The notes below the pieces were generated by a model, which did not search any database, had not been told where the DNA came from, and was given only the letters and a program-made list of their open reading frames with translations. This document shows, one piece after another, positions 1 to 45,568 of a stretch of 45,695 nucleotides of DNA; within the stretch, counting starts at the first letter, position 1, and every line of letters starts with the position of its first letter. Position numbers and translations under genes: made by a program. The stretch lies in IMG/VR virus record IMGVR_UViG_3300045988_144013; one strand, written 5' to 3'. The stretch comes from a virus.

Positions 1-55
1 ATTCTTCTGGAATTGGCTATAATTGTTTCATTAAATAGCACTTTATGATATAATA
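1..55 (+). repeat. Terminal direct repeat, left copy (att core or circular-assembly overlap)
   Basis: Bases 1-55 are identical to 45641-45695. Confidence 0.95.
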
Positions 56-98
56 TTATAATTGCCAAAGAACGACTTGTAAAGCGGGATTTATACAA

Positions 99-125: not shown

Positions 126-1187
126 CTAAAAAAAATTTGAGAGACGCTTCTGTGCATTTTCTCTCATTTCATCAGTGTAGTGTACATATGCCTTTAAAAC
201 TGTTTCAACTGTATCTCCCAACAATGCTGCGACCGTTTTAATATCAAAGCCACTACTAAGTAATGTTGTAGCATAAGTATGCCTGAAGTCATGAATACTT
301 GTGTCATCTTTTGTGTACAGAGAAACTCTTTTTATAGAGTGATATGTCACATTCCAAAATACCATATCGCTGATGTGACGAGGATATTTATTCTTGTATT
401 CAATTAAAACCGTTTGTAATCGCATAGGTATAGGTACAGTTCGATAAGAGTTATTGCTTTTTAATTCTTGTAGGGTCATAATATTTCTATTTGTAGCAAC
501 CATTTGTCGCTCTACTTTTAATGTGCCTGCATTAAAATCAATATCAGACCATTTCAAACCTGTTATCTCGCCAACCCTAAGCCCCGCGAAAGCGGCGATA
601 CAACACGCTGTATATAAAGTATAGTTCTTGGATTTTAAACGTGCTAGAACAGCTTCTAAACGTTCTTTGGAAAGGGCGTTTATTTTTCTTTGGCCTTTTA
701 TTTTTAACGGATGTATCCCTATCGTAGGATCTTTAGTTATAAGTTCGTATGGAGATACCGCTCTTTTAAAAATAGTTTTTAGTTTTACGAGATACAAGTT
801 GGCGGTGTTTGCTTTCACTGGTAAAGAGTTAAATATTGATTGTATGTCGCTATGCGTTATGTCTACCAGACGCATATCTTTTAGTTCTGAAAAGGCTTTG
901 ATAGCGTGCTGGTATCCGAGTAGAGTGTTGTATGCTATGCTCCTTCTTATATCATTAAGATACATTGCGGAAAATTCACCAAAGGTTATTCTTGCAGTGC
1001 TATTGTCCATATATATTGGCGCATTTGCTTTAACTTCTTCTAGTAACTTATCGCCTGCTATTTTTGCTTCTCTTTTGGTTTTAAATCCTTGTTTTGATTT
1101 TTGCTTCCAACAACCACGATTATCTTTATAGGATAATATTACTTGAAATCCTTTATCTTTTTCTCTAAAAGTGAAATTATACTCCAT
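126..1187 (-). CDS. int: Tyrosine recombinase / phage integrase
   Basis: 353 aa. N-terminal SAM-like domain. C-terminal catalytic signature LRVGE...HDFRHTYATTLL...VHYTD (R, HxxR, Y). Located at the genome end next to the repeat. Confidence 0.92.
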   Translation of the reverse strand: MEYNFTFREKDKGFQVILSYKDNRGCWKQKSKQGFKTKREAKIAGDKLLEEVKANAPIYMDNSTARITFGEFSAMYLNDIRRSIAYNTLLGYQHAIKAFSELKDMRLVDITHSDIQSIFNSLPVKANTANLYLVKLKTIFKRAVSPYELITKDPTIGIHPLKIKGQRKINALSKERLEAVLARLKSKNYTLYTACCIAAFAGLRVGEITGLKWSDIDFNAGTLKVERQMVATNRNIMTLQELKSNNSYRTVPIPMRLQTVLIEYKNKYPRHISDMVFWNVTYHSIKRVSLYTKDDTSIHDFRHTYATTLLSSGFDIKTVAALLGDTVETVLKAYVHYTDEMRENAQKRLSNFF

Positions 1188-3697: not shown

Positions 3698-3852
3698 TAT
3701 ATTCGATTAGATATGAATTAGATGCAATGCAGGAAAATCTGAATAACACAGATGATTTGGACGGAAGCGAAGCTAAAGTAAATGTTTTGCTGAAATGGAT
3801 TAAAAACAGTGCAAATACGATTGAAAATAAAATTGAAGATTGGGGCGTGTAA
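3676..3852 (+). CDS. Hypothetical acidic protein (58 aa)
   Basis: RBS GGAGGA 8 nt upstream. Ends 2 nt before the Gp157-like start. Confidence 0.5.
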   Translation: MDNFDDLVYSIRYELDAMQENLNNTDDLDGSEAKVNVLLKWIKNSANTIENKIEDWGV

Positions 3853-3854
3853 AT

Positions 3855-4343
3855 ATGAAACTTTATGAAATTAATCAACAATTAGAGCGGTTGCTAGAAC
3901 TTGATACTGAAAGAATGGTAGATACTGAAACAGGTGAAATATTGACTGCCGAGGATATAGATCAGTTGAAGATTGATAGAGTAGAAAAGATTGAAGGCTG
4001 CCTTGTGGTTTACAAAAACAAAATGGCAGAAACAGCAGCCATTGAAGAAGAAATTAAAAGGCTGACGGAAAGAAAAGCTACCTTAAAAAATAAGGCGGAG
4101 TGGTTAAAAGGTTATGTAGCCTACGCTTTAAAGGGTGAAAAATTTGAGACTCCCAAAGGCGCAGTCAGCTACAAAAAAAGTGAGACAGTGGAAATTACCG
4201 ATAAGGAGAAGCTGCCGACAGAATTTTTGAGAGTTGTTACATCAACATCACCTGACAAAGCGGCTATCAAGGCTGCGATCAAAGCTGGCAGTAAGATTGA
4301 TGGGGCACAGGTAGTAGAGCATCAGAATGTGCAGATAAAGTGA
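3855..4343 (+). CDS. Siphovirus Gp157-like protein
   Basis: Start reset to MKLYEINQQLE. Coiled-coil N-terminus and conserved C-terminus. Sits directly upstream of the annealing protein, as is typical for the family. Confidence 0.6.
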   Translation: MKLYEINQQLERLLELDTERMVDTETGEILTAEDIDQLKIDRVEKIEGCLVVYKNKMAETAAIEEEIKRLTERKATLKNKAEWLKGYVAYALKGEKFETPKGAVSYKKSETVEITDKEKLPTEFLRVVTSTSPDKAAIKAAIKAGSKIDGAQVVEHQNVQIK

Positions 4344-4353
4344 GGTGGAGGAC

Positions 4354-5010
4354 ATGATTGATATATATACAAACTTAGCAACCCCGCCTACAGATGCTTT
4401 GAAAACAATCCAAGCAGGTAATCTAAGGGGAAAAAGTGATATAAACCCACAATGGAAGATTGAAGCTATTACTGCTCAGTTTGGATTGTGTGGTATTGGA
4501 TGGAAATTTGAAATTTTAGATAAGACTATATATCCATTAGAGGATAAGCAAATATTACTGTATATGACGGTAGCTTTGTTTATCAAAAACGGTGATAGTT
4601 GGAGCGAGCCTATCATTGGTTGTGGAGGCGACTTCATTGTTCAAAAATATAAAACTGGACTTACAGCAAATGATGAAGCCTTTAAGATGTGTCTTACTGA
4701 CGCACTTGGTAACGCTATGAAAAATATTGGCGTTGCAGCAGATGTGTACAGGGGGTTTTGCGATGGTAAATATAGCGTTCGAGAAGAACGGCAATCTGTT
4801 GAACCATCAACCACTAAAACATCAAATAAAGCAGAACTGCCTACACCTATAAACCAAACTAAGCCTGCGTTTCCTGACGAAAATACTGGACCACAATTTT
4901 TGATGTGTCAAGAATGTACAGTTGAAATCAGTCAAAGAGTTCACGATTACAGCGTGCAGAAATTTGGCAGGCCTCTTTGTATGAACTGTCAAAAGGCAGT
5001 AGCAAAATGA
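4354..5010 (+). CDS. Rad52/Sak-type single-strand annealing protein with a C-terminal CxxC...CxxC zinc ribbon
   Basis: INPQWKIEAITAQFGLCGIGW and CLTDALGNAMKNIGVAADVY are Rad52-like signatures. The tail is CQEC...CMNC. Confidence 0.65.
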   Translation: MIDIYTNLATPPTDALKTIQAGNLRGKSDINPQWKIEAITAQFGLCGIGWKFEILDKTIYPLEDKQILLYMTVALFIKNGDSWSEPIIGCGGDFIVQKYKTGLTANDEAFKMCLTDALGNAMKNIGVAADVYRGFCDGKYSVREERQSVEPSTTKTSNKAELPTPINQTKPAFPDENTGPQFLMCQECTVEISQRVHDYSVQKFGRPLCMNCQKAVAK

Positions 5011-5066
5011 AGTTGGAAGGTTTAGGGATTCATCAGTTAAATAAATTTTGAAAAGAGGAATTAAAA

Positions 5067-5324
5067 ATGGAACAAGTATATGGGAAAAAAGTTGAAAGTT
5101 ATCATGACAGTACTGATAATTATATCGCTGAAAATGAAGTCACTGTAACAATTACATTAAGCGAATATCGAAAATTGGTGCAGGAAGTGGCTACAAAAAA
5201 ATATGATATCGACAGGGCGAACTCGGCAACGTACGAGGCAAAGCGCCAGCTGGAAAAATTTAAAAATCAATATTTCGAGGAATTAAAAAAAGAATATGGC
5301 GAAAATGCCGAAGATGAAGATTAA
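5067..5324 (+). CDS. Hypothetical coiled-coil protein
   Basis: 85-aa ORF with RBS AGAGGA. Confidence 0.5.
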   Translation: MEQVYGKKVESYHDSTDNYIAENEVTVTITLSEYRKLVQEVATKKYDIDRANSATYEAKRQLEKFKNQYFEELKKEYGENAEDED

Positions 5325-5345
5325 CGCAAAGTAAGTGGGCGCAAA

Positions 5346-5921
5346 ATGAAGCTAACAGTTAAAGGTTTACAGACGTTAAAAGGGATGGGATACATAAATT
5401 TAGTAGTACCTGTCCCTTTATCAGAGGAAGAAGAAATCAATAAAATCGATCCTGAAAAGCAGTATGTTGTAGAGGTCAAGCAATGGCGCAAAGGGCGTTC
5501 TAACGACGCTAATAAATACGCTTGGGTATTATGCCAAAGGATAGCAGAAAAGCTGTCAGAAGAGAGCTTTCACAGCAAGGAAGATGTTTACAGGAAGGCA
5601 ATCCGGGAATGTGGTTACGGCAGAATATGGCCAGTGCCAACTGACGCTGTAAACAGAACTATTGAAATTTGGCAAAGCAATGGTGTTGGCTGGATAGCTG
5701 AATTGCTTGGTGAATGTCAGAACATTAAAGGCTATAGCAATGTAAGGGTATATTACGGTAGCAGTGCTTATGACACGAAAGAGATGAGCCGTTTTATAGA
5801 TTGTTTGGTATCTATGGCAAAAGATATTGGTGTAGAAACAAGGCCGCAGGAAGAATTAGATGAGCTGATCAAGGAGTGGGGCGTTAAAGATGATTCCAAA
5901 AATAAAGAGGATAAGACTTAA
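5346..5921 (+). CDS. NinB/Orf-like recombination mediator
   Basis: KGRSNDANKYAWVLCQRIAEKL aligns by eye with lambda Orf RNRSLDQNRKLWACLGDV. The C-terminal SSAYDTKEMSRFIDCLVSMAKDIGV aligns with STSRMRVGEFAELLELIQAFG. Confidence 0.55.
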   Translation: MKLTVKGLQTLKGMGYINLVVPVPLSEEEEINKIDPEKQYVVEVKQWRKGRSNDANKYAWVLCQRIAEKLSEESFHSKEDVYRKAIRECGYGRIWPVPTDAVNRTIEIWQSNGVGWIAELLGECQNIKGYSNVRVYYGSSAYDTKEMSRFIDCLVSMAKDIGVETRPQEELDELIKEWGVKDDSKNKEDKT

Positions 5922-7760: not shown

Positions 7761-8285
7761 ATGAAAATAAGTGCAGAAAAATTACAGGAGATTATAGAAA
7801 GTCACGGCAGATGGTTGCGAAACGAAGAAGGAGGGGAACGTGCAAACCTCCGCAGTGCAGACCTCAGCAGTGCAGACCTCAGCGGTGCAGACCTCAGCGG
7901 TGCAGATCTCAGCGGTGCAGACCTCCGCAGTGCAGACCTCAGCAGTGCAGACCTCTACTGTGCAGACCTCAGCAGTGCAGATCTCAGCGGTGCAGACCTC
8001 CGCAGTGCAGACCTCCGCAGTGCAGACCTCCGCAGTGCAGACCTCGACAAAACATATTATCAAGTTGTTAGAGTTGGTAGTCGCCGAGGAATAACTACTT
8101 ATTGCGTAGATGACGACAATGTTCTATGCGGATGTTGGAATGGCTTCAAAGGTGGTACGCTAGACGAATTTAAAACTCGTGTAGAGAGTGTATACGGACG
8201 TGAAGGTAATAATCCTAACGAGCAATATTACGATGAGTATATGGCGGCAATCACATTCTTTGCGGCAATGAAGGAGATGAAATAA
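7761..8285 (+). CDS. Pentapeptide-repeat protein
   Basis: About 14 consecutive A(D/N)LxS/G pentapeptides (ADLSS/ADLSG/ADLRS), then an 85-aa Cys-containing C-terminal domain. Confidence 0.85.
   Translation: MKISAEKLQEIIESHGRWLRNEEGGERANLRSADLSSADLSGADLSGADLSGADLRSADLSSADLYCADLSSADLSGADLRSADLRSADLRSADLDKTYYQVVRVGSRRGITTYCVDDDNVLCGCWNGFKGGTLDEFKTRVESVYGREGNNPNEQYYDEYMAAITFFAAMKEMK
7841..8046 (+). repeat. 15-bp tandem repeat, about 13.7 copies (TGCAGACCTCMGCRG)
   Basis: Read directly. Units differ at only 1-3 positions. In frame, 3 pentapeptides per 45 bp. Confidence 0.95.
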
Positions 8286-8626
8286 TGAAAATTAAAGCAA
8301 CAACACCATGTTATAAATTCAGGGACGCAACACCGGAAGAGCAGATTGCAAAAATCAAAGAAGAACTGGCTGAGGTAGAAGCTGCTTACACAGAGTTTAA
8401 AAAAGTGTTGGCAGAAGATAAGCTGCTGGCGTTGATGATGGAGATTATCGACGTTAAGGCTTGCTGTAACACGTTTGTTTACCAGCTGCGGAAGAATCAT
8501 GCTTTGGCGTTTTTGGCTTATGCCAAAGCTAAGCGAGAAGTCATAAATAAAAATCTTGCAAGAGGGTACTACTTTACACCAGAAGATATTGACAAGCTGA
8601 ACACTAATAAGTCAGAACCGTTTTGA
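8285..8626 (+). CDS. MazG-like nucleotide pyrophosphohydrolase (tentative)
   Basis: KEELAEVEAA and MEIIDV resemble the MazG EExxE / ExxD metal-binding motifs. Confidence 0.4.
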   Translation: MKIKATTPCYKFRDATPEEQIAKIKEELAEVEAAYTEFKKVLAEDKLLALMMEIIDVKACCNTFVYQLRKNHALAFLAYAKAKREVINKNLARGYYFTPEDIDKLNTNKSEPF

Positions 8627-8653
8627 TATACAGTCAACTTTAGGAGGCAAGCA

Positions 8654-9421
8654 ATGAAAATAAAGACAGAATTTTATTGTGATAATTTTCAAAATTTTAA
8701 ACGGTATGGGATTCCCAAGGCACAGTTAGTAATTGCGGATATACCGTACAACCTTGGAGCAAATGCTTACGGATCTAATCCAATGTGGTATGTAGATGGC
8801 GATAATAAAAAAGGTGAAAGCAAATTTGCAGGTAAAGCTTTTTTCAATACAGATCATAATTTTAACATTGCAGAATACTTTCATTTTTGTAATCGCTTAT
8901 TAAAAAAAGAGCCTAAAGAAAAAGGGAAAGCTCCGTGCATGATAGTTTTTTGCTCATTTGAACAAATGCCGATGGTAATTCAGTATGCAGAAAAACATGG
9001 GTTTAAAAAACACATTCCTTTAATTTTCATCAAAAACTTTTCAGCACAGGTATTAAAAGCAAATATGCGTGTTGTTGGTGCTACTGAATACGCTTTGGTG
9101 TTATACAGGGAAAAACTACCGAAATTTAATAATAATGGAAAAATGATTTTTAATTGGTTTAACTGGGTAAAGGATACAAAAACATATCCTAAAATACATC
9201 CGACACAAAAGCCAGTTAATTTGTTGAAGCAGTTAATAACAATCTTTACAGACCCAAGTGACGTGGTTATAGATCCAGTAGCAGGGAGTGGGACAACATT
9301 AAGAGCGGCTATGGAATTAGGTAGAAACAGTTATGGATTTGAGTTATCTAAGGAGTTTTACAATAAAGCTAAAACCGAAATGCTCAAGCCGCAGAAATTT
9401 GAACAATTAGTTTGTTTTTAG
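8654..9421 (+). CDS. Orphan DNA methyltransferase (N6-adenine or N4-cytosine, beta class)
   Basis: Motif IV ADIPYN lies before motif I VIDPVAGSGTT. HPTQKP motif present. No adjacent restriction endonuclease. Confidence 0.85.
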   Translation: MKIKTEFYCDNFQNFKRYGIPKAQLVIADIPYNLGANAYGSNPMWYVDGDNKKGESKFAGKAFFNTDHNFNIAEYFHFCNRLLKKEPKEKGKAPCMIVFCSFEQMPMVIQYAEKHGFKKHIPLIFIKNFSAQVLKANMRVVGATEYALVLYREKLPKFNNNGKMIFNWFNWVKDTKTYPKIHPTQKPVNLLKQLITIFTDPSDVVIDPVAGSGTTLRAAMELGRNSYGFELSKEFYNKAKTEMLKPQKFEQLVCF

Positions 9422-33920: not shown

Positions 33921-34301
33921 TTAGAAGAAAAATTTATGGGAATGACATTGTTCATATATTTTTCTTATTTCCCAATTAGAAATATTATAGCCATGTAGTC
34001 GTTTATTGTGGAAAACCAACATAAATAAAAACCAAAAAAATGGCAAAATGAATCCTAGATAGGCATTATAAGAATAAATACCAGTTATGTATGGTATAAA
34101 ATATATTGTCGCGATAATTAGTCCGAGAGCAACAAATACATTTTCAATTAATTTTATAATTAGCAAATATAAAGTAAAAGCAATTAAAGTAATAATTCCG
34201 CATTGAAGTTTAAGTATTATTGAACCTTCACGACCCATTCCGATTGCAAATATAGAAAGCCATACACATAATCTTCCCATATCGTCATTAAATTTATCCA
34301 T
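33921..34301 (-). CDS. Four-TM membrane protein; candidate superinfection-exclusion protein (SieA position)
   Basis: 126 aa, very hydrophobic, low-GC codons. Own TG-extended -10 (TGATATAAT) and RBS AGGAG. Confidence 0.6.
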   Translation of the reverse strand: MDKFNDDMGRLCVWLSIFAIGMGREGSIILKLQCGIITLIAFTLYLLIIKLIENVFVALGLIIATIYFIPYITGIYSYNAYLGFILPFFWFLFMLVFHNKRLHGYNISNWEIRKIYEQCHSHKFFF

Positions 34302-34370
34302 ACCAATACTCCTAAAATAAGCATATTATTGACTGTTTTTCATAATTATATCACATTTATAAATGAAAAT

Positions 34371-34392
34371 AAAACAGCCCGTAGGCTGTTTT
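34371..34392 (-). terminator. Terminator after the XRE gene
   Basis: AAAACAGCC-CGTA-GGCTGTTTT, symmetric hairpin. Confidence 0.6.
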
Positions 34393-34396
34393 AAAG

Positions 34397-35101
34397 TTAA
34401 GATTTATTAAGGTATTCTTCTATGAATTTATTCAAGTCATTATCTTGATTGTCTACTATTATATATAAATCATCAATAATAGAATGTTTTTTTGAATCTG
34501 TAATGAATTTAAACTGACCTGAAATAAAAGCAAAAAGTCCGATTACGACTTCACTGTCTCTGAAAAATTTGAAAAGCAAATAACCATTCTGTGAAATAGG
34601 ATCAATTGCGGTGAAATATGATTCCTGTTCTAAAAAATCATAATCATTAAATTGAGGGAAAAAGCTCAAAATAAAATCATTTATGATTGGATGTGTTGAA
34701 TTAAAATGTTTGTTTTTATCCAAAGAAACCGGATTTCCATTGTCATCCAAAACCATTATTTCTTCTTTTAAGTCTTCTGGTATCTTTTTTATGAATGGAA
34801 CACTTTCAACTTTAGGGAAGATATCCCAGTGAACCAAAGAATTCTGTGTATCGTATATTAGTTTTTCTACTAATTTATAGACTTTAGAGTCAGACTTTGA
34901 TTGAGTATCTAAAAGCAGATAATCTAAAGTTACATTAAATAATTCTACAAGTTTTTTTAATAATTCTGGATCGCTAGGAATACTTTTTCCCGTTTCGTAG
35001 TAACTAACAATTCTCGAGGATACTCCTAACTTTGTGGCTAAATCTTTTTGGGTCATACCCTTGGCTTCACGGAGTTTCTTTAGATTTTCACTGAAAGACA
35101 T
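34397..35101 (-). CDS. XRE-family HTH regulator with an unknown 165-aa C-terminal domain (Mnt-position repressor)
   Basis: LREAKGMTQKDLATKLGVSSRIVSYYETGK. Start reset to MSFSEN. Divergent from the RHH/antirepressor operon. Low GC. Confidence 0.75.
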   Translation of the reverse strand: MSFSENLKKLREAKGMTQKDLATKLGVSSRIVSYYETGKSIPSDPELLKKLVELFNVTLDYLLLDTQSKSDSKVYKLVEKLIYDTQNSLVHWDIFPKVESVPFIKKIPEDLKEEIMVLDDNGNPVSLDKNKHFNSTHPIINDFILSFFPQFNDYDFLEQESYFTAIDPISQNGYLLFKFFRDSEVVIGLFAFISGQFKFITDSKKHSIIDDLYIIVDNQDNDLNKFIEEYLNKS

Positions 35102-35180
35102 ATTAATCACCACCTAAAGCAATTATAACAATAAGAACCATAAGACACAATATTTTTCTCGAAAAACATCAAGACGTATA

Positions 35181-35209
35181 TTGACATAACTAACGTATTA
35201 CGTTAAAAT
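35181..35209 (+). promoter_or_regulatory. Promoter TTGACA-N17-TAAAAT with an embedded 15-bp perfect palindrome TAACGTATTACGTTA
   Basis: Consensus -35. The palindrome 35191-35205 spans the spacer and -10. 33 nt before the RHH gene. Confidence 0.65.
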
Positions 35210-35241
35210 TAAAAGTAACAAACGAGAAAGGAGTATTAAAG

Positions 35242-35412
35242 ATGAGGCCAACAATTGATTTTAAAGGTGATCTTGGAGCAGTACTTAGATACCACTGTAC
35301 AAAAGTGGGCATTAGTATTGCTGGCTATGTCAAGGGGTTAGTGTATGATGATTTGTTAAAGAAGTATCCTAACTTACTTGATGAAACAAAAAAAGAAACT
35401 ACCATCAAATAG
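35242..35412 (+). CDS. Arc/Mnt-like ribbon-helix-helix protein (56 aa, tentative)
   Basis: N-terminal beta-strand-like TIDFKGDL followed by two helices. RBS AAAGGAG. Not in the ORF track. Confidence 0.45.
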   Translation: MRPTIDFKGDLGAVLRYHCTKVGISIAGYVKGLVYDDLLKKYPNLLDETKKETTIK

Positions 35413-35471
35413 TTCTTGGCGGAACAATGGTAGTTTCATAATGAAAGAATGTTCAAGATAAACATCATTCT
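35388..35471 (-). ncRNA. Candidate antisense small RNA, about 84 nt (sar-like position)
   Basis: Minus-strand promoter TTGAAA-N17-TAAACT (complement of 35478-35506). 11-bp perfect hairpin 35395-35405 / 35427-35437, followed on the minus strand by T7. Confidence 0.4.
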
Positions 35472-35531
35472 TTTAACAGTTTATCATATATTGAACATTC
35501 TTTCAAATTAAAATTGAAAGGATGTATTTTT

Positions 35532-36263
35532 ATGAAAAACGAACTGAAGATTTTTGAAAACGAAGCTTTTGGTAAAGTTAGAATAATTGAAAAAAATAAT
35601 GAGCCGTGGTTTGTAGGCAAAGATGTTGCTGATATTTTGGGGTATAAAAATGGCAGCCGTGATATTAACGTCCATGTTGATGAAGAAGATAGGCTAAAGT
35701 ACCAAATCCGTACCGCAGGTCAAGCGAGAGAGCAGACACTTATTAACGAAAGCGGATTATACTCATTGATTCTATATAGTAAGCTACCTGCCGCAAAGAA
35801 ATTCAAACGCTGGGTAACAAGCGAAATACTTCCTGCGATTCGCAAAACTGGGTCGTATTCTGTAAATCAGGATATAAAAGCTAGAGAAGTAGAAGCTCGC
35901 TTAAATAACAGCCGGGCAAGAGTTGCATCGACATTCCTTAAAGTTGCTCAAATGACTGATCTGCTAGAATATAAGCATATATGTCAGCAGAAAGCAGCAG
36001 AGGTTTTAAGTGGTTTACCGTTACTACCAATGGAAGAAGCTAAAGAAATTACTTATTCAGCAACAGATATAGGGAAAATGCTTGGAGTATCGGCAAATAA
36101 AATAGGTAAGATAGCCAATCAGCATAATCTTAAAACGCCGCAGTATGGAAAGTTATTTTACAGCAAATCGGAACATAGTTGCAAAGAAGTAGAAACATTC
36201 CGTTACTACGAATGCGCCATTCTAAAATTCAGAGAAATTCTGAAAGGTGGTGTGGTGGCATGA
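35532..36263 (+). CDS. BRO-N domain antirepressor
   Basis: LKIFENEAFGKVRII...EPWFVGKDVADILGY...INESGLYSLILYSKLPAAKKFKRWVTSEILPAIRKTGSY. Start reset to MKNELK. Confidence 0.85.
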   Translation: MKNELKIFENEAFGKVRIIEKNNEPWFVGKDVADILGYKNGSRDINVHVDEEDRLKYQIRTAGQAREQTLINESGLYSLILYSKLPAAKKFKRWVTSEILPAIRKTGSYSVNQDIKAREVEARLNNSRARVASTFLKVAQMTDLLEYKHICQQKAAEVLSGLPLLPMEEAKEITYSATDIGKMLGVSANKIGKIANQHNLKTPQYGKLFYSKSEHSCKEVETFRYYECAILKFREILKGGVVA

Positions 36264-37178: not shown

Positions 37179-37210
37179 AGCGCTTACTTCGGTAGGCGCT
37201 TTTTTATTTG
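37179..37210 (+). terminator. Terminator with UUCG tetraloop, family member 3
   Basis: AGCGCTTAC-TTCG-GTAGGCGCT followed by TTTTTATTTG, which runs straight into the tail-fibre RBS GGAAGGAGGG. Confidence 0.7.
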
Positions 37211-37225
37211 GAAGGAGGGAAAACT

Positions 37226-38374
37226 TTGATAGGCAGTAGTGAAAATAGGATTACATACAATGGGAATGGAGTTGCTACAGAGTTTGGATATTCTTTTAAG
37301 ATATTGGAAAAGACCGATATTAATGTAGTACTTGTTGATCCTGATTTAAAAGAAACTGTTTTAACCAAAGATTATTTCGTTGATATGGAGAAGTCAGTAG
37401 TGTTTTATCCTGGCTATTCTCCGGGAGCAGAACCACCAGAGGCAGAACGACCACCAATATTACCTGAAGGGTGGCAGCTTGTTTTATATCGTGAGGTTCC
37501 TATAACACAGGAATCTCAGTTGGATACTCATTGGCCATTTAATGTTATCGAAGCGGCATTGGATAAACTAACGATAATTTGCCAACAGCTGTGGGACGGT
37601 GTAACGAGAGCAATTCGTTTATCAGATTCAGCGCCTAAAGATATTTCTACAGTTCTGCCACAACCAATGCCAAACGAGAGTTTTTATTGGGATGAAACCG
37701 GTAAAAAACTTATTGCTGGGCCTAATCCTAAATTTGCTATGGAGCAGGCACAGGCGAGTGCAGAATCTGCAAAGAAGTCTGAAACGTCAGCAGCAGAAAG
37801 TGCAGAATCTGCAAAAAAAGATGCAGAGAAAGCAGAAGATGCTGCTGACCGTGCAGAAGATATTTTACTACGGTTCGAGAGCGGAACTATAACAAAAGAG
37901 TTTACTGCGACAGATGACAGATGGACTGAAAACAACGGCATGTGGCGTCTTACAATGGCAATGGGTAACAGCAGGCTTATAGGCGTATACAAGGAAGTCA
38001 AGAAGCCTCAGTATGAAATGGTACTGACCGGCGTTTATATGGACGCTGAAAATGTGATTATCGAAGTGCCTGAAAAGTTTGCGGGTATCGTTATACTGGC
38101 GTCGCTGACTAAAAAAACCGGTGACAAAGTATATATCAAAAATTTTACTGAGGAAGATTTTACAAAGGTTGGCAGCGATTCTGTACTGACCATATCTGCC
38201 GAGGAACACCAGGCAGGGAGCAGTCCTATCATCGTCAGCTTAACAAAAATCATTGATGGTGTTAGCTATCCTTATTATGCTAATACCGGCGTAGATAATA
38301 ACGGTAACGTTGTTATAAATGCGAGCGAAGCGTTCGCAGGGAAAATAATTTTGGATGGAGGTTATTTACAATGA
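37226..38374 (+). CDS. Tail fibre protein, proximal
   Basis: N-terminus NRITYNGNGVATEFGYSFKI...INVVLVD is typical of tail-fibre anchors. AESAKKSETSAAESAESAKK repeat. TTG start 6 nt after the strong RBS. Confidence 0.7.
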   Translation: MIGSSENRITYNGNGVATEFGYSFKILEKTDINVVLVDPDLKETVLTKDYFVDMEKSVVFYPGYSPGAEPPEAERPPILPEGWQLVLYREVPITQESQLDTHWPFNVIEAALDKLTIICQQLWDGVTRAIRLSDSAPKDISTVLPQPMPNESFYWDETGKKLIAGPNPKFAMEQAQASAESAKKSETSAAESAESAKKDAEKAEDAADRAEDILLRFESGTITKEFTATDDRWTENNGMWRLTMAMGNSRLIGVYKEVKKPQYEMVLTGVYMDAENVIIEVPEKFAGIVILASLTKKTGDKVYIKNFTEEDFTKVGSDSVLTISAEEHQAGSSPIIVSLTKIIDGVSYPYYANTGVDNNGNVVINASEAFAGKIILDGGYLQ

Positions 38375-39342
38375 ATGTAGAAAAAATTGGAACTGGAACG
38401 CAGCGTGAAAGAGATGCTGCGATAAACGCTAATTTTGAAGCGTTAGATACTGGCAAGCTTGATAAAACATCGGCAGATTCTGACTATGCTAAGAAGTCTA
38501 CAACTTTAAGTGGTTATGGTATTACTGATGCATATACAAAGACTGAAACTGATAATAAAATTTCTGCTGTTGTATCTTCATTACAATGGAAGCCTTCTGT
38601 TGAAACATATGCAGATATTGCAACAACTTATCCTAATCCGGCAGACGGCTGGACTGTAAACGTAAATGATACGGATATAACATATCGTTATACTGGTTCA
38701 AGTTGGATTGCTATTTCTGCAAACTCCATTCCTATTGCTACTTCTGACACAGACGGCAAAATGTCCGCTGCAATGGCAGCTAAACTGAATGGTATTTCTG
38801 AGGGGGCTAATAATTACACGCTTCCTGCTGCTACGGCAAGCGTATTAGGCGGTGTAAAAATCGGTTCTAACATTAATATCAATAGTGATGTTATTTCAGT
38901 AAATAATGCGTCTACGACCCAAAAAGGTGTCGTGCAATTAATAGATAGCTTAGTTACAGAAGATTACACCAAAGCTCCAACTGCCGCAGCTATGAAAAGA
39001 ACATGGGAGTTAGCTTCCGGTAAACAAAACCCTGAGACGACATTATCCGGCTATGGAATTACTGATGCTTATACGAAAACCGAAGTTGATAATAAAATAA
39101 CAGAAGCTGTTGCCGGTGCTGCAGTACTCAAAACTGAATTTACAGCAAGCAGTGCTAACTGGGGAACATTATCAGACGGCTATTATCCATTTACTTTAGC
39201 GGCGTCAGGAAAACACTTCCTCGGCATGTATAGAACTAACGGCAGTACATATGAGAGTGTTATGGTTGACGCCGTTGAAAGTGGCAGTAATATTATAATT
39301 CAAAGTACGGAAAAGTTTGCCGGCTTTATTCTGACGATTTGA
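38371..39342 (+). CDS. Tail fibre protein with two LSGYGITDAYTKTE fibre-repeat motifs
   Basis: The motif occurs at about 38503-38562 and again at about 39040-39099. ATGA overlap with the upstream gene. Confidence 0.75.
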   Translation: MNVEKIGTGTQRERDAAINANFEALDTGKLDKTSADSDYAKKSTTLSGYGITDAYTKTETDNKISAVVSSLQWKPSVETYADIATTYPNPADGWTVNVNDTDITYRYTGSSWIAISANSIPIATSDTDGKMSAAMAAKLNGISEGANNYTLPAATASVLGGVKIGSNININSDVISVNNASTTQKGVVQLIDSLVTEDYTKAPTAAAMKRTWELASGKQNPETTLSGYGITDAYTKTEVDNKITEAVAGAAVLKTEFTASSANWGTLSDGYYPFTLAASGKHFLGMYRTNGSTYESVMVDAVESGSNIIIQSTEKFAGFILTI

Positions 39343-39353
39343 GGTGAGGAAAA

Positions 39354-39953
39354 ATGGGACTTGAGGGATTAGTAACAGTTGAAAAAATAAGAGCTGCAAT
39401 CAATGCATCACTATCAGGTCTGAGTAACTCTAATGCAACGATTACTATAACAAAGAATGATGGTACAACTAGTACTATTACCATTAACAATGTAGCTAAT
39501 GCGACTACTGCAACAAAACTCGGAAGCAGCACTGTAGGCAGTGGCGTAAAGGCAATTTATCTTAATGCAGGTACGGCAACTGCGAGTAATAGTACTGTGG
39601 GGAACAGCAACACGCCGGTGTACTTAAACGCTGGCACTATAACAGCTTGTGATGCAAGTATTGGTTCCGGTTGGACTGTTTCAGAAGGGGCGGCAGGTTG
39701 GGCGCGAGAAAATACCACTGGCTTCACCATCCAGTGGTGGGTAGGGAATACTGATGCTACATATAGAAGCATTACTTATCCTAGAAGTTTTTCAACTTTG
39801 TATTATGCAAATGTTATAGCGTCCAGCAACTGCGAAACATTTGTTACAGGTGTTAGTAATACCAGTATTAGTTTTTGCCTATGTAGTGGTTACAATGATG
39901 ATCGCTGGAGCGGTTCACAGCCTTGTAGGCTTTATGCTTGTGGCTTGACTTAA
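39354..39953 (+). CDS. Tail fibre tip / receptor-binding protein (expressed orientation, tip V1)
   Basis: Ser/Thr/Asn-rich shaft, then a C-terminal tip domain after TGFTIQW. The left inverted repeat lies inside the gene. Confidence 0.75.
   Translation: MGLEGLVTVEKIRAAINASLSGLSNSNATITITKNDGTTSTITINNVANATTATKLGSSTVGSGVKAIYLNAGTATASNSTVGNSNTPVYLNAGTITACDASIGSGWTVSEGAAGWARENTTGFTIQWWVGNTDATYRSITYPRSFSTLYYANVIASSNCETFVTGVSNTSISFCLCSGYNDDRWSGSQPCRLYACGLT
39707..39737 (+). repeat. Left 31-bp inverted repeat (IR-L) of the putative invertible segment
   Basis: AGAAAATACCACTGGCTTCACCATCCAGTGG is the exact reverse complement of 40133-40163. Confidence 0.95.
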
Positions 39954-40162
39954 CTTATGCCAAACGCTACATACCTTTGTCCTTGTCCTGGTGACCCAAT
40001 GGTGAAACCATTGTTAGAGATAGATGTTACAGTTACTTGGTTCTTATATAATTGTTCACCTTTATTGTTATTAGTTTGCATTACAACCTGAAACGCTGTT
40101 GTAAAAGTGCGAGGAAAGGTAGTTGTATCGCCCCACTGGATGGTGAAGCCAGTGGTATTTTC
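39950..40162 (-). other. Silent alternative tail-fibre tip cassette (V2), 70 codons plus stop, no start codon of its own
   Basis: The minus strand reads ENTTGFTIQWGDTTTFPRTFTTAFQVVMQTNNNKGEQLYKNQVTVTSISNNGFTIGSPGQGQRYVAFGIS*. A stop lies 13 codons upstream with no ATG/GTG/TTG between. Its stop overlaps the V1 stop. Confidence 0.8.
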
Positions 40163-40163
40163 T
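40133..40163 (-). repeat. Right 31-bp inverted repeat (IR-R)
   Basis: Exact reverse complement of 39707-39737. Confidence 0.95.
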
Positions 40164-40180
40164 ATGAAAAGGAGAACTAT

Positions 40181-40780
40181 ATGACTTACTTAATTAAATT
40201 CGATGAAACCGGTAGACGTGGGGAAACCTATGTCGCCGAAGAAAAAACACAGGAAGAAATTACAGAACTGCTTGAAAAAGGTTTTGTACAAATTCCAGAA
40301 GAAGATTATCAGCTTATTGTCGGTAATATTGATGGTCATGAGTATATACGTAAATCTGATGGAAGTTATAGTATATATGAACCTCCTACGCCTGACTTAG
40401 AAGAACTGAAGGCAAATAAACTGGCAGAGGTAGACGCTTGGACAGAAGGAAAAATCACCGGCGGGTTTACATCTGAATGTAGCGGAGAGCTGGTCAGATA
40501 TGACAGCGATAAAGATACACAACTTACAATGCAGGGTATAGCCTTGAACGTAAATACAGATCGCTTTGCTGTAGAATATCCTACAGGCTGCCCTGTGCGT
40601 GGTTACGCAGATAGAAGTGCTGTCAAAACGATCTTCTATCTTACGCCGGAACAGGTGTTCGAGTGGTGCGCTGATTTATCTACCCATATAGGTACGTGTA
40701 AGCAGGCAGGTTGGAATAAACAGGCTGAAGTAAATGCAGCTCAAAGCAAAGAGGAATTGGATGCGATTATTTTAGATTAG
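40181..40780 (+). CDS. DUF4376 domain protein (tail-fibre-associated)
   Basis: Start reset to MTYLIKFDETG, with RBS AAAGGAG. ELKANKLAEVDAWTEGKITGGF...YDSDKDTQLTMQG is the DUF4376 pattern. Confidence 0.6.
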   Translation: MTYLIKFDETGRRGETYVAEEKTQEEITELLEKGFVQIPEEDYQLIVGNIDGHEYIRKSDGSYSIYEPPTPDLEELKANKLAEVDAWTEGKITGGFTSECSGELVRYDSDKDTQLTMQGIALNVNTDRFAVEYPTGCPVRGYADRSAVKTIFYLTPEQVFEWCADLSTHIGTCKQAGWNKQAEVNAAQSKEELDAIILD

Positions 40781-45544: not shown

Positions 45545-45568
45545 ATTCGTCAAAAATTCGTCAAAAAT
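45545..45568 (+). promoter_or_regulatory. Second copy of the tandem ATTCGTCAAAA x2 site (opposite arm of the att region)
   Basis: Identical 24-mer to 99-122. In the circular form the two copies flank about 170 bp that contains the 55-bp repeat. Confidence 0.5.

Follow-up and report, generated by a model that had tools for sequence, protein, structure and literature searches.

The virus record IMGVR_UViG_3300045988_144013 of IMG/VR, a stretch of 45,695 nucleotides that we call the window, is a complete and circularly permuted phage genome; its length is 45,640 bp, and the two ends overlap by 55 nt. This work concerns the end of its distal tail-fibre gene, where two alternative tip cassettes, V1 and V2, face each other between inverted repeats. 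In the orientation of the window, the expressed fibre gene is the open reading frame (ORF) 39354-39953 of 199 amino acids (aa), inside which the sequence AGAAAATACCACTGGCTTCACCATCCAGTGG lies at 39707-39737 (the left inverted repeat, IR-L) and recurs as an exact reverse complement at 40133-40163 (IR-R), leaving 395 nt between the arms and giving 457 bp when both arms are included. This is the sole long perfect inverted repeat in the 45.7-kb window, the runner-up being 29 nt at 86%, and by our own arithmetic (N^2/2 x 4^-31) only about 2e-10 perfect 31-nt inverted pairs would be expected by chance in 45.7 kb.

The left arm is translated as part of the fibre (Table 1) and, read from IR-R on the minus strand, the same ENTTGFTIQW runs in frame into a different ending, GDTTTFPRTF...GQRYVAFGIS*, whose frame has no ATG, GTG or TTG ahead of an internal ATG at 40081. 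The stop codons of V1 (39951-39953) and V2 (39950-39952) overlap tail to tail inside TTAA, and outside the repeat the two cassettes share just 17 identical residues. The search for a promoter or terminator within the segment gave nothing above background, and only 6 nt separate the end of IR-R from the ribosome-binding site AGGAG (40170-40174) of the next gene, which starts with the ATG at 40181. Each arm holds a 7-9-7 dyad, CCACTGG-N9-CCAGTGG, with a chance probability that we estimate at about 1%, and 0 copies of this dyad were found outside the arms in 1.3 Mb of phage and host DNA. An earlier sequence-only reading of the window had described an invertible fibre tip in these terms, and each of its structural elements (the perfect repeat, the place of IR-L inside the fibre gene and the ENTTGFTIQW encoded there, the start-less 60-aa ending in frame on the minus strand and the overlapping stops) can be read directly in the DNA. 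It was also right that no assembly gene is duplicated, the segment consisting of two tips only with a single DUF4376 gene outside it.

Inversion among related phages

According to the sequence-only reading, flipping the segment would exchange V1 for V2 while leaving the shaft untouched. The predicted product of this inversion (shaft, repeat and V2; 188 aa) was built and used as a search query, and the protein exists: P0001 matches it with 99% identity and 100% coverage of the 188 aa, and many further clusters match as well. Two 45-kb gut-metagenome contigs, L001 and L002, encode the shaft-V2 fusion. Compared with the window, both are collinear up to the left arm (99.8%), inverted over the 457 bp of arms and inner segment with 2 mismatches, and collinear again from the right arm on (99.1%), a pattern that places the inversion breakpoints inside the arms. 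The shaft of L001 is 100% identical to that of the window and is there joined to V2, and the shaft repeats are kept in homologues. The exchange of tips is thus borne out by these two contigs and by P0001.

The proposed comparison of orientation among related phages likewise found both. Relatives were gathered from IMG/VR, ENA and other assemblies, and among 46 related loci, all with exactly two cassettes and two arms, the expressed tip is V1 in 26, V2 in 19 and a third tip in one; an additional group of 22 metagenome contigs again includes both states. A neighbour-joining tree of the 3 kb flanks requires at least 10 state changes, with the same minimum on a tree of the inner segment, and the flanks of the closest pair with opposite orientations differ by 0.37%. 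One identical 395-bp haplotype was found 11 times with V2 on and 5 times with V1 on, two other 395-bp haplotypes each occur in both states, and inner segments cluster by lineage, not by orientation. A different cassette pair, V3/V1, is also known in both states (L060 and L170). These recurrent state changes and shared haplotypes indicate that inversion is recurrent and recent relative to point mutation, not one old event. Both states turn up in isolate genomes and across hundreds of contigs built by different assemblers, and misassembly should not produce them, since the contig names record k-mers (k109-k141) longer than the 31-bp repeat. We conclude that inversions in nature have been both repeated and recent and that their breakpoints lie in the arms.

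A hint of both states within one sample comes from the SPAdes contig L169, which stops exactly at the inner edge of an arm, the graph branch point expected for a mixed sample; the low-coverage short fragments L033-L035 were uninformative on within-sample heterogeneity. A degenerate pattern of the repeat gave 0 matches in the GTDB representative genomes, where a protein-profile scan retrieved only distant shaft-repeat relatives without inverted repeats, and megablast against the deposited phage genomes of INPHARED gave no match.

The tip domains and the upkeep of both cassettes

Modelling both tips, a check named in the sequence-only reading, gave a confident structure for V1 and a poor one for V2, whose fusion model has a predicted local distance difference test score (pLDDT) of 52.8. 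The V1 tip model (pLDDT blocks of 77-97 and one block of 61) was matched by Foldseek to the foot of the R1 and R2 pyocin fibres (6CL6, 6CXB) and to AP22 gp53 (4MTM), with E-values from 2e-5 to 1e-4 and root-mean-square deviations of 2.6-2.9 A over about 100 columns; the predicted fold of V1 resembles that of these receptor-binding feet. V1 and V2 themselves have no Pfam match, and the sister tip P0050 lies above the threshold of the Pfam family Gp53-like_C (PF21882, 30.1 bits against a cut-off of 24.9). With hhalign, V2 aligned to the V1 family at 97% probability, in an alignment that includes the shared ten residues, as a shorter homologue. Domains of this fold are receptor-binding knobs in solved relatives, which makes it reasonable to expect that V1 and V2 would bind different receptors.

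Decay of the minus-strand cassette in relatives, which the sequence-only reading had named as evidence against a switch, was not found: in 45 of 45 V1/V2 loci both cassettes are open and the inner segment is exactly 395 bp long. Between the two main lineages, the ratio of non-synonymous to synonymous changes per site (pN/pS) is 0.21 for V1 and 0.10 for V2, regardless of which one the assembled orientation expresses. The two cassettes are thus kept intact, as are the arms, and the cassettes are under purifying selection. Rare cases show that the silent copy does erode without selection, namely a truncated V1 remnant with stops, next to a sixth tip type and an arm down to 21/31 (L161:5487-5844), and a 42-nt in-frame deletion in a silent V2 (L154:4808-5220).

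There are two arm alleles, which differ at 3 positions (8, 16 and 19); in the second lineage all 3 substitutions are present in the left and in the right arm. Within a locus the arms belong to one allele except in L156, a short contig of 1.9 kb whose arms (L156:674-1128) are of two different alleles and which is either a lineage hybrid or a chimeric assembly; further exceptions are a difference at the outermost base in 10 loci and a single-base variant in 2 loci. A natural arm variant that might help to locate the crossover point, A>G at position 11, has no further copies in IMG/VR. Other cassette pairs, V3/V1 and V4/V1, are joined to the same arms at the same boundary. In the non-invertible relative L092, whose next gene begins 28 nt on from the fibre gene, the peptide motif is kept (ENSTGLTVQW) in quite different codons and with no partner arm, which indicates that the protein does not force the nucleotide identity of the arms. 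At L092:4815-5836 the same contig carries an element unrelated to the tip switch, in which a 69-bp and a 53-bp perfect inverted repeat, nested one in the other, enclose some 700-880 bp of DNA downstream of the fibre genes.

We hold it to be quite probable that this temperate T7-like phage of Phascolarctobacterium faecium has a real DNA switch with two states, a partly intragenic inverton, in its distal fibre gene. By recombining with each other, the two 31-bp arms would invert the 395-bp segment, so that the constant 118-residue shaft and 10 repeat-encoded residues are joined to one of two knobs, V1 with 71 aa or V2 with 60 aa, while the unused knob would rest on the opposite strand without promoter or start. 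As both knobs appear to be small receptor-binding domains of the Gp53-like_C or pyocin-foot type, a single lysogen lineage could release virions with either adsorption specificity.

The agent of inversion

The least certain step is the catalyst, which seems to be encoded neither beside the switch nor elsewhere in the phage, the integrase aside. The hunt for an invertase used phmmer and tblastn with Hin, gamma-delta resolvase, XerD, the phage integrase and a shufflon recombinase, together with Pfam or PHROGs on ORFs of at least 100 aa, and no ORF left unscanned exceeds 131 aa on the coding strand. For serine recombinases, Hin and gamma-delta resolvase were compared by phmmer with all six-frame ORFs of 50 aa or more, the best E-value being 0.27, and Pfam on all larger window ORFs found no PF00239. 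No second tyrosine recombinase was recovered from the window, only the integrase, whose gene lies about 6.5 kb from the switch around the circular genome.

A candidate for supply in trans came from a search with the V1 tip, which found viral contigs with arrays of 9-14 knob cassettes, including one that is 59% identical to V1. These cassettes encode Gp53-like_C knobs of 60-85 aa (68 distinct peptides), and every one of them begins at an invariant 10-mer, ACAGTGGGGA, that encodes Gln-Trp-Gly (106/106 distinct sites) and corresponds, as a structural junction, to the inner end of the arm in the window. Each array is divided into two oppositely oriented blocks, with a fixed tail-to-tail pair where they meet. 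Genomes whose cassettes are 100% identical have them in permuted order, and in L231 the hinge pair is swapped; judged by its sequence, the array is an active inversion shufflon. It adjoins a DUF4376 gene and a gene for a 346-aa tyrosine recombinase with the catalytic Pfam domain only, and belongs to an element with P2-like baseplate genes (baseplate J, gp25, PAAR) at a fixed place in P. faecium. The phage integrase is 24% identical to this recombinase, whose family, represented by WP_370820696.1, has 553 IMG/VR loci with clade-specific cores (ACAGTGGGGA, GCAGTGGGGA and CTGTCGG(G/A)GA). In the single chromosome of GCA_041324275.1, the shufflon is placed at about 531 kb, and the two-cassette switch is in a prophage at about 456 kb, with 64 kb between the element and the prophage. 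We found no paper describing this tip shufflon. The invertase of the switch would then be a tyrosine recombinase supplied in trans by the host cell, with the 346-aa enzyme of a co-resident P2-like element as the candidate.

The phage's own integrase might instead double as the invertase, being the genome's only site-specific recombinase, and the dyad in the arm does resemble a tyrosine-recombinase core site. However, the attP core TTGGCAATTATAATATTATATCATA and the arm-type repeats TTCGTCAAAAA are unlike the inverted repeat, and neither of them occurs near it. Prophages with the module sit next to a HIGH_NTase1 gene, at a tRNA gene or next to dnaJ, three different chromosomal settings, and the window's repeat allele is present in L025, a prophage at the tRNA gene with different arm repeats, while the second allele is used by the prophages beside dnaJ. 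A weaker point, as many contigs are partial, is that only one IMG/VR contig with the module was also recovered with a close integrase homologue. We consider a double role of the integrase very unlikely. Still less credible, and in our view extremely improbable, is that the locus is a relic of duplication and inversion without adaptive role, whose orientations would be old stable alleles moved by recombination, or assembly artefacts. Phage mosaicism is evident, with module order varying between lineages, and L156 with its arms of two alleles would suit such a history, but identical 395-bp haplotypes in both orientations, inner segments grouped by lineage, a silent cassette under purifying selection and intact in 45/45 loci while rare lineages decay, and both states across assemblers and isolate genomes with a repeat shorter than k109-k141 all speak against it.

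A real switch could also do without a site-specific invertase and be flipped by general, homology-dependent recombination of its 31-bp arms, carried out by host RecA, through RecA-independent template switching or by the recombination module of the phage. No backbone encodes an invertase in cis, and every backbone has a recombination module, with ERF, Rad52-like or AAA_24 genes in relatives at the position of the window's own (Table 1). The arms evolve in concert at three positions that span 12 nt, one of them outside the dyad, and between lineages they show 2 synonymous changes per 9 synonymous sites, about the pS of the cassettes (0.20-0.22); this approximately neutral rate suggests that it is arm-to-arm identity that is conserved, not a particular sequence. 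By our own reasoning, the population data demand merely an inversion rate well above the mutation rate, and because any such rate gives the observed pattern, they do not separate an enzyme from homology. On the other side, 31 bp is at the bottom of the length range for RecA or annealing proteins, four cassette types share the same sharp arm boundaries, and the non-coding outer side of IR-R has never been lengthened to add homology. The dyad itself would arise only rarely by chance, both synonymous allele changes fall in its 9-bp spacer, as expected for the overlap region of a tyrosine recombinase, and the sister system in P. faecium uses a dedicated recombinase at the same codons. On balance, we regard homology-dependent flipping as somewhat unlikely.

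Several observations weigh against the switch with a helper enzyme as proposed here. The junctions of the window are CCAGTGGGGC (V2) and CCAGTGGTGG (V1), so that the two invariant flanking A's of ACAGTGGGGA are unmatched; V2, V3 and V6 have CAGTGGGG in common, V1 and V4 only CAGTGG, and CAGTGG is shared because the Gln-Trp codons dictate it. Moreover, identity in the window extends 31 nt upstream of the junction, and the shufflon sites share nothing upstream. On account of this junction mismatch and upstream identity, flipping by a site-specific tyrosine invertase from the host cell in trans, with the 346-aa recombinase of the P2-like element as the candidate, is tentative, although it is the explanation that we prefer. 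The concerted change of the arms at positions 8, 16 and 19 fits whole-arm gene conversion more naturally than a strand exchange of 6-8 bp, and the co-residence of shufflon and switch is documented in one genome only. The evidence on orientation comes from comparison between contigs or genomes. As for function, the V2 fusion model is too poor to use, the fold of V2 is linked to that of V1 through hhalign only, and the change of host range is inferred.

The complete proposal, in which the phage would have outsourced its host-range switch as a two-cassette inverton flipped in trans by the tyrosine invertase of a co-resident P2-like shufflon element, is slightly more doubtful than the trans step on its own. 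If true, it would mean cross-talk between prophages through a shared pool of receptor-binding cassettes and one recombination junction, and the adsorption specificity of a podophage would depend on the other prophage of its lysogen.

Genome setting and comparison with known systems

The sequence-only reading had placed the locus in a podovirus-type phage of Bacillota, which agrees with the gene content and with the host. The T7-like virion genes of the window include a portal (PF12236), a GP7 capsid protein, gp13-like and gp14-like proteins and a tail tubular protein, in addition to a 1995-aa internal virion protein with a MuF_C domain. A temperate gene set is formed by the tyrosine integrase (126-1187), repressor-type regulators and a Bro-N antirepressor. 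Integrase genes identical to that of the window stand at prophage ends in large contigs, adjoining a HIGH_NTase1 gene, and annotated fibre proteins of the window's family occur in P. faecium, including RefSeq members of the clusters with the shaft-V2 fusion. The host is P. faecium, of the class Negativicutes and the phylum Bacillota. One V2-type fibre protein, P0096, is also deposited as Bacteroides uniformis (RGV36496.1 / WP_117947947.1), all other named copies being from P. faecium, and this entry is probably a contaminated assembly, not a second host.

The fibre genes follow each other in the order 37208-38374, 38371-39342 and the switchable 39354-39953, after which comes the gene for the DUF4376 protein, a gene that likewise follows the switch in those related loci of which the gene map was inspected. 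Within the gene for the 323-aa fibre protein, a 62-nt direct repeat with 79% identity (38500-38561 and 39037-39098) encodes a recurring TLSGYGITDAYTKTE-DNKI motif and may be a hot spot for fibre-length variation. In the late region (33921-36263), a helix-turn-helix repressor-like gene (34397-35113, minus strand, divergent) and the Bro-N antirepressor gene (35514-36263) are placed between the gene for the 1995-aa internal virion protein and the fibre genes. The lineage of L016 has its fibre module directly after gp14 and its large internal proteins behind the lysis genes; this different position indicates that module order has been rearranged between lineages. In the early region (7761-9421), a pentapeptide-repeat protein (7761-8285) and an N6/N4 DNA methylase (8654-9421) may have anti-restriction functions.

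Table 1. Features of the fibre switch and of its genome, with positions in the window except where another sequence is named
Feature	Position	Strand	Remarks
Constant shaft part of the distal tail-fibre gene	39354..39706	+	118 residues
IR-L	39707..39737	+	left recombination arm; encodes (R)ENTTGFTIQW
Tip cassette V1	39738..39953	+	71 codons + stop; expressed in the window
Tip cassette V2	39950..40132	-	60 codons + stop; silent in the window
IR-R	40133..40163	-	right recombination arm; exact reverse complement of IR-L
Two proximal fibre proteins	37208..39342	+	388 aa with tail-fibre N-terminal adaptor; 323 aa with fibre repeats
DUF4376 protein	40181..40780	+	PHROG 'tail fiber protein'; outside the invertible segment, single copy
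Tyrosine integrase	126..1187	-	sole site-specific recombinase of the genome
General-recombination module	3840..5921	+	Sipho_Gp157, exonuclease-like protein, NinB/Orf-like mediator
attP core TTGGCAATTATAATATTATATCATA	44-68	-	mapped from prophage junctions
Two pairs of arm-type direct repeats TTCGTCAAAAA	100-121 and 45546-45567		around the attP core
Tip shufflon	L272:11196-15616		P. faecium GCA_041324275.1, ~531-536 kb; also L228-L242, L273-L277, L281-L348

Invertible fibre tips are textbook knowledge for Mu and P1, and are barely documented outside Proteobacteria. The searchable literature describes no invertible fibre tip in a T7-like phage or in Negativicutes and makes no mention of Phascolarctobacterium invertons or of the switch of the window. 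The system is a minimal tip inverton that switches in nature and has no enzyme in cis, carried by a T7-like phage whose host is a gut Negativicute. Hundreds of human-gut contigs bear fibre proteins of this family, and the 457-bp switch offers a compact natural model of programmed host-range bet-hedging in the phage of a gut commensal. It also raises the question of whether temperate phages can use host-resident or rival-phage recombinases to vary their receptor-binding proteins, which the lack of an invertase in cis and the candidate helper in a second prophage-like element make testable. In practice, tip switches split assemblies, confuse strain typing of gut phages and bear on host prediction, and a two-cassette module is small enough to be borrowed for engineering switchable phage specificity.

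Mu G with Gin, P1 C with Cin, e14 with Pin and p15B with Min are serine-invertase tail-fibre switches of enterobacterial phages (PMC6109161, PMC9881135). As in Mu G and P1 C, the window combines a constant N-terminal fibre part with alternative C-terminal receptor-binding parts through inversion at intragenic repeats and keeps the unused part silent on the other strand; in systems of the Mu/P1 type an alternative host range is the consequence. Those segments, however, measure 3-4 kb and have a duplicated assembly or chaperone gene for each tip, against 395 bp and tips only in the window; they have an adjacent serine invertase and a Fis-dependent enhancer, against a genome without any serine recombinase; and they belong to myoviruses of Proteobacteria, against T7-like virion genes and a Negativicute host. 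The likeness to the logic of Mu G and P1 C drawn by the sequence-only reading therefore stands for the alternative tips joined by inversion (L001/L002, P0001) and fails for the invertase gene, which is absent here.

Closer in scale is the Rin shufflon of Bifidobacterium prophages, with tips of about 95-100 aa (Mavrich et al. 2018, PMC6109161). In Rin, as in Rci/pilV of R64 and in the window, only a short C-terminal receptor-binding tip is exchanged at a short repeat within the gene, and Rin also shares the setting of a gut prophage and, for the candidate helper, the chemistry of a tyrosine recombinase. Rin and Rci differ in having several cassettes, asymmetric sites of 11-19 bp and a flanking recombinase, where the window has two cassettes, perfect 31-bp arms and no recombinase flanking them. 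The P. faecium shufflon shares with the window the host species, homologous Gp53-like_C knobs, the Gln-Trp(-Gly) junction, a convergent tail-to-tail cassette pair and the downstream DUF4376 gene, and differs in its 9-14 cassettes, 10-bp site, adjacent 346-aa recombinase and contractile-tail baseplate genes. The window itself is not a shufflon by definition, as it has neither a flanking recombinase nor at least three cassettes.

Among gene-altering programmed inversions, tail fibres are an enriched target class (Milman et al. 2023, PMC9881135), and partly intergenic invertons have been described (Chanin et al., PMC10028968). Like this class, the window pairs a gene with a shorter, inverted and start-less partial copy, has repeats that overlap the gene and targets a tail fibre; the intragenic inverted repeat, the start-less partial homologue and both orientations among near-identical genomes are all present. 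The long-read-confirmed phage-tail examples of that study are COG5301-type or Mu-like tail-fibre genes in prophages, unlike the window (PMC9881135). The closest published analogue is a second inverted locus in tRNA-Met bifidophages (Bb423phi2 against 689b-1) of about 500 bp with no flanking recombinase, for which an invertase supplied in trans was proposed as 'not previously reported in phage genomes' (PMC6109161). There too, the 3' end of a structural gene and a small opposed coding piece are inverted between related prophages; that locus has an 8-bp repeat in a gene without an assigned function and is known from the comparison of two genomes, whereas the switch of the window has a 31-bp repeat, a fibre gene with a recognisable knob fold, recurrent switching across dozens of loci and a concrete candidate for the helper.

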